A DNA stretch of 32,000 nucleotides from Verrucomicrobiota bacterium (GCA_021294815.2 CP095464.1:450001-482000), one strand, 5' to 3'. Shown: positions 22,471 through 23,857, numbered from the stretch's first letter. The notes: a model not told the origin generated them from the letters alone. Made by a program: numbers and translations.

Positions 22471-22862
22471 TCTTAAGAGTATCTATGGGGTTAGAGATGC
22501 TGTCCTGTGAGTTCTGAAGAGAGTTTTGTTATCTTAACTTAAACATCAGTTTACGTAAGGAAAGGGAGTGCTTGTGACTTTGCAAATTTGTAGGAGATTT
22601 GGAATGTCAAATTAAGCCGTGGTATTCGGGTAGAGGGATTTTGTACTTTTTTGTGATGGTGGGGCGGAATTTCCCTGAAATTATAAGTGAGATTAAACAA
22701 GATCTGTCCATTGGTTTTGTTGAAGTATTGAAATATTTTTAATTTTTGTAAAAATTTCTTGACTTCGAGAAAAATCGCTCCGATAGTGTCGGAACTTATG
22801 AAGAAACTATATAAAAATAAAAAGGGTCTTCTTATGGTTTTATCGCTAACATTAAGCTGCAT

Positions 22863-22869
22863 GGGGGGG
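22863..22869 (+). repeat. G7 homopolymer tract at the signal peptide/mature protein junction of repeat protein B
   Basis: ATGGGGGGGA at 22861-22870. With G7 the ATG-22798 frame stops at TGA 22888. With G6 it reads ...SCMGGNLLYASEN..., matching paralog A (...FFNGNLLHASAGN...). Confidence 0.9.
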
Positions 22870-22873
22870 AAAT

Positions 22874-23857
22874 TTGCTTTATGCAAGTGAGAATAGTTTT
22901 AATGAAAATGCGACGACGAGTCTTACGGATACGAAGAATTTGGAGTATTTGTATCAAAGATTTATTAGCCTGAAAGCTTCATACTACAATAAAGTGCAAG
23001 AATATTGGTTGTTCGGGTATTCTGAATATGAAAAAACGATTAATGATGATGAGCTTAAACAGCGTATGATGGAGAGGGATTATTATGAAATATGTGAACT
23101 ATTGTATGCAGCAGAGGTTCTTCAAGAGGAAATAAATGCTTTATCCCAAGTACCGTCGTCTGTAGAAAACGTTGCCAAAAAGCTTCCTTTGTTTATCCGA
23201 CAAATGGAGGGGGATCAGAGTGGAAGTTCTCTGCGAAGCGATAGCTTGAAGATACTTGATTATTGTTTATCTTTTCAGGACGCAGTAAAAGGTGCGGAGA
23301 CTTTAGCAAGTTTTAGAACCTATGTACAAATAGCTGTTTTCGAGGAGCTTTGTTTTTTACTTAGAAACCCTCAGTTGAAGTTGACAGAAGATAGGGGTTA
23401 TAAACATTTGTTCGCATTCAGAAATGTAATTGATGAACGGGTAAGCAAGGAGCTAAAGCAAGAATTATCGGTATATCCGCTTTTGGCGATTCCGTTACAA
23501 TACCGTCTACGTTTTGTGACGTCACTAAATCAGACAGAAATGAAGGTTCTTTTTAAGAATCTTGGAGATCACATTGGTTATCCTGCTTGTCAAAAAGTGT
23601 CTCCTGAGTTCATTAAAGGATTGTATTCTAAATTAAATCAAGCGGGGAAAAGAGAATGTTTTTCTTTGATGATAACTTATATGAAGTCCTGGAAAGGAAG
23701 TGCGGGGGTTGAATATGCATTCTCTGAATTAAATCAGGCTAATAAAGGCAGATTGTTCCCTGTTATCATGAATTATGTTCGTCAGGGATCTATATGTCGG
23801 TTTTCGAGGGAGCGAATGTATCGTAGTATGAATAAGTACAATCAAAGCATAAACTAA
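22874..23857 (+). CDS. Secreted repeat protein B (paralog of A), currently out of frame with its own start and signal peptide at 22798
   Basis: Paralogous to A in the N-terminal region (EINALSQ...AKKLPLFIRQMEG...LKILDYCLSF vs EINRFQG...AEKLPVVIQKMEH...QRVLDYVMSF). The C-terminus has 3-4 SLNQ-type repeats (23511-23854). The signal peptide ORF MKKLYKNKKGLLMVLSLTLSCMGG is at 22798-22869 in another frame. Confidence 0.7.
   Translation: MLYASENSFNENATTSLTDTKNLEYLYQRFISLKASYYNKVQEYWLFGYSEYEKTINDDELKQRMMERDYYEICELLYAAEVLQEEINALSQVPSSVENVAKKLPLFIRQMEGDQSGSSLRSDSLKILDYCLSFQDAVKGAETLASFRTYVQIAVFEELCFLLRNPQLKLTEDRGYKHLFAFRNVIDERVSKELKQELSVYPLLAIPLQYRLRFVTSLNQTEMKVLFKNLGDHIGYPACQKVSPEFIKGLYSKLNQAGKRECFSLMITYMKSWKGSAGVEYAFSELNQANKGRLFPVIMNYVRQGSICRFSRERMYRSMNKYNQSIN

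Follow-up and report, generated by a model that had tools for sequence, protein, structure and literature searches.

A one-base excess in a G7 run separates the signal peptide of an LNQ-repeat protein from its intact body in a reduced Verrucomicrobiota genome

In a chromosome of a Verrucomicrobiota bacterium, a gene for an exported repeat protein, here called B (UPA28106.1, LW808_002245), is broken by a frameshift at a run of seven guanines (G7) that parts its signal peptide from an otherwise intact body. The window analyzed is a stretch of 32,000 nucleotides (GCA_021294815.2 CP095464.1:450001-482000) from an 878,461-bp chromosome of a metagenome-assembled genome (MAG), in which B lies next to an intact paralog, A (UPA28105.1, LW808_002240). 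With somewhat less than even confidence, we explain the break as a real, young, and nonadaptive slippage frameshift in a redundant member of a family that is prone to turnover. Unless a strand is given, features are on the plus strand.

Translation from the ATG at 22798 yields a stub of 30 codons (22798-22890; MKKLYKNKKGLLMVLSLTLSCMGGKFALCK) consisting of the signal peptide MKKLYKNKKGLLMVLSLTLSCMGG, six out-of-frame codons after the G run (KFALCK), and a TGA stop at 22888-22890. The G7 homopolymer (22863-22869) is composed of the final base of an ATG codon, codon 22, and two GGG codons, and occupies codons 22-24. The body of B (22874-23857) continues in the +1 frame, with 327 open codons between a TTG start and a TAA at 23855-23857, and encodes an alpha-helical "LNQ" repeat protein. 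In silico, tract length sets the frame: G7 gives the 30-codon stub, and G6 or G9 gives the full preprotein. The 352-aa preprotein obtained by loss of one G matches A from residue 1 (26% identity, E=5e-30; BLASTP and MAFFT alignment). The first-pass annotation of this DNA had placed the start, G7 run, stop, and +1 body at these coordinates, and translation bears all of them out; its claims that removal of one G restores homology with A and that A has no G tract agree with the alignments as well. It had also put the G run exactly at the junction of signal peptide and mature protein, but the break is instead in the c-region of the signal peptide, five residues ahead of a conserved AS(A/S/E) position. 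The GenBank annotation presents B as an intact 327-aa protein starting at TTG 22874, an entry that conceals the frameshift as well as the signal peptide.

Homology across the frame break is the nonrandom part of this observation. The known family has four members: A, B, gene C of a sister MAG (L001 3004-4155; isolate SRR14411247_bin.11), and gene D (P0003) on a 1.8-kb Logan contig, L008. Paralog A (20391-22046) is intact: its 551 aa include an in-frame signal peptide and about six LNQ repeats. When the 5' regions of all four genes are aligned as DNA, B shows one extra column relative to A, C, and D, and it falls within the G run. The other three read through in frame at the homologous site, where A has AATGGTAAT, C has GGAATGAAT, and D has AATAGCACC, with a homopolymer in none of these three comparators, all of which are very divergent. 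At the place homologous to B's G run, the sequence of A is TTTAATGGTAAT. A tblastn search of the window with C locates the switch in frame at 22862-22866. In L001, the gene call P0004 (3073-4155) begins at an internal Met and omits the in-frame signal peptide.

All four proteins begin with a basic n-region and a hydrophobic core of 11-12 residues, features by which we assigned signal peptides to the family by inspection. The N-terminus of B, with a net charge of +5 over its first 10 residues and a hydrophobic core of LLMVLSLTLSC (Kyte-Doolittle 2.3), resembles those of A, C, and D. In the c-region, A, C, and D have (H/R)AS(A/S) followed by G or E, whereas B has YASE, a poorer site. A possible lipobox, L(G/S)C, is present in B, C, and D and absent from A.

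The expression signals of B are kept as well as those of intact genes, as judged from its start codon and a conserved upstream block. A consensus scan finds a promoter-like element at 22759-22787 (TTGACT, 17 nt, GATAGT), which ends 10 nt ahead of ATG 22798. Alignment of B, C, and D reveals the shared block CTTGAC..AAATCGC.CCGATAGTG..GGAA..TATGAA, in which TTGAC(T/A), a 17-nt spacer, and GATAGT likewise end 10 nt before the ATG. We infer that this block acts as a promoter; because of its closeness to the start codon, the leader would be very short or absent. A -10-like hexamer ends 10 nt from the start in B (22759-22798), C (L001 2960-3004), and D (L008 285-324), with no Shine-Dalgarno-like sequence in these intervals, and the -10 region of A is degenerate (20336-20391). 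Messenger RNAs of the family may be leaderless or nearly so. Downstream of B, a hairpin resembling an intrinsic terminator (24103-24143; 13-bp stem with a T-rich tail) would end its transcript and is largely conserved in L001.

The G7 run itself is within chance. The window holds a single G7/C7 tract, compared with 2.69 ± 2.06 in dinucleotide-preserving shuffles, at least one being present in 89 of 100 shuffles; the tract is neither longer nor more frequent than composition predicts. Because GGG makes up 21% of Gly codons, roughly a fifth of Met-Gly-Gly sequences would contain G6 even if no tract were selected. There is no second G/C run of at least 7 nt in the 32-kb window, nor any in the related loci L001 and L021 (30 kb), each of which has one G6/C6; the clade generally avoids G/C homopolymers. 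Apart from the G7, the window has just one G/C run of at least 6 nt, a G6 at 17973-17978 inside a GNAT acetyltransferase gene, and it is kept at the orthologous position and the same length in L001 (554-559). The window has 12 homopolymers (A/T of at least 7 nt, G/C of at least 6 nt), and only the G7 of B coincides with a frame break. At least seven of the others, up to A8/T8, are within long intact open reading frames (ORFs). Widespread homopolymer error in the window was considered and rejected, since no other of these homopolymers is tied to a frame break and the conserved genes checked are full length.

B is located in a variable island between DUF374 and rpsT. The left anchor is a full-length DUF374 gene (19531-20193; Pfam PF04028, E=5e-23; 88% aa identity to that of L001). 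Flanks of the island at 17420-20211 and 23865-28192 are 91.5-91.8% identical in DNA between the window and L001, and flanking genes have a synonymous divergence (dS) of 0.19-0.32 with ratios of nonsynonymous to synonymous divergence (dN/dS) of 0.01-0.18. The interior differs sharply: it spans 3.65 kb with two family genes in the window (20212-23864) versus 1.18 kb with one gene in L001 (2795-3970), its family members are 26-32% identical between the two, and DNA similarity is recognizable over only ∼100 nt, around the promoter and signal peptide. Guanine-plus-cytosine (GC) content drops from ∼49% outside the island to 36-39% inside it, and the island of L001 has ∼40%. In the more distant L021, the same slot (13706-15709) holds another signal-peptide repeat protein, of 266 aa, with marginal similarity to A.

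Relics of other genes are present on both sides of B. A duplicated 3' fragment of DUF374, its last 85 codons, precedes B (22192-22470) and forms the left edge of the B cassette; the corresponding repeat pair, D1/D4, spans 19930-20190 and 22207-22462. The fragment diverges from the full gene with a dN/dS of 0.16 at a dS of ∼1 and is a mosaic: over its first 150 nt it matches the window's own gene at 91% identity, and its last 36 codons are of the allelic type of L021 and L008, whereas the full-length gene of the window carries the L001 type. The family gene in L008 is bracketed by DUF374 3' sequence at both ends (1-45 and 1750-1799). These patterns suggest that recombination in the 3' end of DUF374 brings cassettes in or swaps them, possibly by Campbell-type integration or unequal crossover. 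On the evidence of these sequences, the locus is a birth-and-death or cassette-exchange island.

On the other side, a relic 3' tail of a family gene (23865-24048) lies in frame directly behind the TAA of B, as identified by tblastn, DNA alignment, and translation. The sequence that follows the TAA, VNLLNQEGMGQRFSDVLT, adds one further LNQ repeat, and the tail is 91.7% identical in DNA to the final 60 codons of intact C (L001 3971-4155). Relative to L001, the window tail has a 1-nt deletion between 23912 and 23913, and differences are spread as 6/6/4 over codon positions with a dN/dS of 1.05, which is neutral. Counting the TAA and the tail deletion would give B three lesions. We downgraded these two as lesions of B because the tail has a dN/dS of ∼1 and C-termini are not conserved in the family, being unrelated among its four members. 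Given the same two facts, the tail may be a relic of an earlier resident gene, but this assignment is ambiguous. Additional inactivating mutations downstream, which the first-pass annotation had set against a switch, accordingly give a mixed picture: they are absent from the body, yet the conserved 3' tail past the stop codon is broken.

If the frameshift is irreversible, we infer that it is young. No lesion was seen in the 327-codon body or in the promoter. At this base composition, an open frame of 327 codons has a chance probability of 3e-12, and 14-33 stops occur in each of the other five frames; a body that is open so far beyond chance must have been under selection until recently. We bounded the age by the divergence up to which an unselected copy stays open with a probability of at least 0.05, assuming indel-to-substitution ratios of 0.05-0.2. 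As 6% of substitutions in the body create a stop, a dead gene of this length is expected to stay open only to d=0.013-0.03 substitutions per site (95% bound), at most about one-tenth of the distance to the sister genome (dS 0.19-0.32). The cassette of B is older; dated by the duplicated DUF374 segment, its age is roughly equal to the sister divergence or more. The intact body thus leaves three possibilities: a young frameshift, a reversible one that is regularly undone, or no real frameshift at all.

These three possibilities lead to different accounts of B, of which we favor the loss of a gene. In this account, B would come second in a tandem array of two genes for Sec-exported, alpha-helical LNQ-repeat proteins, in a low-GC, recombination-prone island of a 0.88-Mb Opitutales/Puniceicoccales-like bacterium. 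A single slipped-strand event would have changed G6 (ATG-GGG-GGA, Met-Gly-Gly) to G7, so that translation from the conserved ATG would stop after 30 codons and the 327-codon body would lose its export signal. The event would be recent, hence the otherwise undecayed body, and a slip of -1 or +2 could reverse it. B may be redundant because A is intact next door. Repeated gain and loss of genes at the island, the chance-level G7, and homologues that have no tract favor an ordinary young loss, presumably with no selection for switching. Several points weigh against it. An intact promoter, start codon, and body, together with a 5' tract in a secreted, duplicated, and hypervariable gene, fit equally a phase-variable gene that is OFF. 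To catch an irreversible lesion within ∼5-10% of the turnover time of the locus is somewhat improbable per gene, although B was singled out for being broken. Finally, B is known from one genome and a single MAG consensus, in which an error at the longest G run is possible.

An evolved phase-variation switch is an unlikely but credible alternative. Reversible slippage among G6, G7, and possibly G9 would toggle export of B in subpopulations, the consensus having caught the OFF state, and would vary the secreted repertoire met by the host. Such a switch is consistent with a tract lying in the 5' coding region, where its length decides the frame, and with the family, which is secreted, duplicated, and extremely divergent between close genomes, a type of gene that is phase-variable elsewhere. 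The promoter-like element, start codon, and 327 codons remaining intact in the OFF state are also consistent with a switch, but are equally expected of a very young pseudogene. Short tracts have precedents in C6 of Bordetella bvgS (PMC1891110) and A6/A7 of Listeria inlA (PMC2831843), and a poly-G precedent from the Planctomycetes-Verrucomicrobia-Chlamydiae (PVC) group is found in chlamydial pmpG genes (PMC6740158). However, 7 nt is at the lower limit of length, as a census in Campylobacter jejuni starts at 7 (PMC4965091); a G8 in Bordetella is stable, with instability in longer alleles only (PMC1891110); and the 6-7-nt tract of inlA reverts at only 4e-8 to 5e-7 (PMC2831843). The ON state, G6, would be less mutable still. 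The chance-level count, the three family members that have no tract, and the lack of a second candidate tract in the 32-kb window or in 30 kb of related loci also argue against selection for switching. What stands of the first-pass annotation is thus a homopolymer frameshift between a presumed Sec-type signal peptide and the intact body of a protein from a duplicated, fast-evolving family; its label of contingency locus is neither supported nor refuted by these tests. We consider it doubtful that B is truly phase-variable inside a cassette-exchange locus of secreted alpha-solenoid proteins; it would then be the first known case in a Verrucomicrobiota symbiont with a reduced genome. Equally doubtful is the associated proposal that the 3' end of DUF374 and the conserved 3' tail are recombination arms for swapping, duplicating, and silencing genes. 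If true, the secreted repertoire would vary on two time scales, by slippage and by cassette turnover.

An assembly or sequencing artefact is improbable; it would mean that the run is really G6 and that B is simply an undamaged secreted paralog. The break falls exactly at the longest G/C homopolymer of the window, removal of one base brings B perfectly into frame with three homologues, and the rest of the gene is intact. The genome is a single MAG contig, which we take as often being of long-read origin, and two sequencing efforts on one strain of Chlamydia psittaci disagreed at long poly-G tracts of pmp genes (PMC3323650). Conversely, one in 12 homopolymers of the window is tied to a frame break and at least seven others are inside long intact ORFs, and the conserved genes checked are full length, with the GNAT, CesT, DUF374, S20, FKBP, and lipase genes having the lengths of those in L001 or nearly so. 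Expression of B from the G7 allele is very improbable, whether as a signal-less cytoplasmic protein from TTG 22874 or as a preprotein restored by +1 frameshifting or transcriptional slippage. The predicted products differ: the ON or recoded preprotein spans ...SCMGGNLLYASE..., and a protein started at the TTG begins MLYASEN. The G7 run ends 4 nt before the TTG and could pair with a CCUCC anti-Shine-Dalgarno sequence, some genes of the window use GGAGG-like sites, and the stop of the stub (22888) is 14 nt past the TTG, making termination-reinitiation geometrically possible. But 4 nt is a short distance and TTG a weak start codon, and the product, which begins two residues before AS(A/S/E), would be the mature protein without an export signal and is unlikely to serve the function of the family. 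As for recoding, a tRNA-Gly could, judging from the sequence, re-pair in the +1 frame on GGG-GGG-A, but the A-site codon past the run is the common AAA, which is neither slow nor a stop. To our knowledge, transcriptional slippage is documented mainly for long A/T runs and not for G7, which counts against the recoding route.

The closest likeness to B is in the PmpG subgroup of Chlamydia pneumoniae, C. abortus, and C. psittaci, whose coding regions have poly-G/poly-C frameshift hotspots (PMC6740158, PMC3323650). Both systems are in host-associated PVC bacteria with reduced genomes and involve expanded, fast-evolving, exported paralogs in which a coding G homopolymer breaks the frame of some copies. 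They also share a three-way ambiguity among phase variation, pseudogenization, and artefact, which is discussed explicitly for Pmps (PMC6740158, PMC3323650); in pmpG, duplication, phase variation, and pseudogenization coexist and are told apart only by comparison of many strains (PMC6740158). Unlike A and B, which have no Pfam match, Pmps are autotransporters with Pfam domains; the model of A is all-helical, with weak, nonsignificant fold matches to alpha-solenoids. Pmp tracts are long, their length differs between many strains, and ON and OFF alleles are intermixed on the tree, whereas B has one G7 in one genome and its relatives have no tract.

The 5' poly(A) of inlA in Listeria monocytogenes, where A7 is in frame and A6 leads to truncation after 8 aa (PMC2831843), is similar in other respects. 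In both cases, an exported protein is encoded by a gene with a homopolymer of 6-7 nt at its extreme 5' end, the change of a single base leaves a tiny N-terminal stub, and other lineages carry an interrupted, nonslippery sequence at that place. The tract of inlA is A/T and that of B is G. Isolate polymorphism and reversion (about 4e-8 to 5e-7) have been measured for inlA, whereas B is known from one sequence, and for inlA too, low rates leave the choice between a switch and recurrent loss debated.

Classical poly-G/C contingency loci include 29 loci with tracts of at least 7 in C. jejuni (PMC4965091), lgt genes of Neisseria (PMC2192423), and homopolymeric tracts of Bordetella (PMC1891110). B would work by the mechanism of these loci, in which slipped-strand mispairing at a G run inside a gene shifts the frame in which a secreted or surface protein is read. 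Those genomes, however, hold many tracts, usually of 8-13 nt, that are longer than chance and conserved yet variable in length among strains or within cultures, and where they can be tested, the tract of B has none of these properties. Host-restricted bacteria with reduced genomes, such as Buchnera and Blochmannia, have young pseudogenes caused by frameshifts in homopolymers such as poly(A), mostly A/T tracts in AT-rich genomes. As in those cases, a single homopolymer indel would be the first lesion of an otherwise intact, nonessential, and redundant gene in a small genome. The differences are that the tract in B is G and that the genome has a GC content of 49% and otherwise avoids G/C runs.

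These explanations have different implications. If the G run is a switch, a 0.88-Mb host-restricted symbiont would use contingency-type variation of a secreted protein, implying an ongoing antagonistic or recognition interplay with its host and providing a handle on which secreted proteins matter. If B is a young pseudogene, which we think likelier, the frameshift is of more modest value: it puts a date on a gene that is now dying and marks the DUF374-rpsT island as the fastest-evolving spot in a small genome that is otherwise conserved.

In the collections searched, this is an orphan family. Two word-index profile searches and an exhaustive HMMER search (1.84e9 representatives) retrieved no further copies of B, only A, B, C, and P0003, and B occurs once in 5.8e9 protein clusters and 1.84e9 representatives. 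A scan of JGI metagenomes with B gave no match, and one with DUF374 gave relatives at no more than 53% identity, indicating that the clade is absent from that collection. Look-ups of the exact products of B, A, S20, and CesT in a contig index that does not include the window genome gave no match. Neither A nor restored B matches a Pfam family at E<=0.01, and the Pmp repeat, Pmp middle, and autotransporter domains (PF02415, PF07548, and PF03797) were found in neither. The AlphaFold model of A is all-helical aside from two short predicted beta-hairpins and has no barrel; its predicted local distance difference test (pLDDT) score is 58, rising to ∼90 in parts of the repeat region (300-480). A search of PDB folds with this weak model returned 1067 matches at E<=10 but none at E<=0.001; the top matches are alpha-solenoid or repeat proteins with E>=1.3e-3 and template modeling scores (TM-scores) of ∼0.3 or lower.

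The neighbors of B encode a CesT-family chaperone, two GNAT acetyltransferases, DUF374, S20, a Mip-like FKBP, and a class-3 lipase. Scanning the window against Rfam and for tRNAs gave no match. On the minus strand at 17432-19405, a gene for a CesT-family type III secretion chaperone, 99% identical to that of L001, is followed by two GNAT (Acetyltransf_3) genes on the same strand. A CesT-type chaperone in a 0.88-Mb verrucomicrobial genome hints at type III secretion effectors nearby. In the distal GNAT ORF (17432-18235), ∼90 residues precede the GNAT domain, and the L001 orthologue has a hydrophobic N-terminal stretch. The class-3 lipase (755 aa; 25857-28124, minus strand) is conserved in many MAGs of Puniceicoccales and Opitutales at 44-75% identity. 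It is also 34% identical to a match labelled Entamoeba marina on a 480-kb contig; this contig may come from a symbiont or a contaminant in a protist assembly, or the match could reflect gene transfer.

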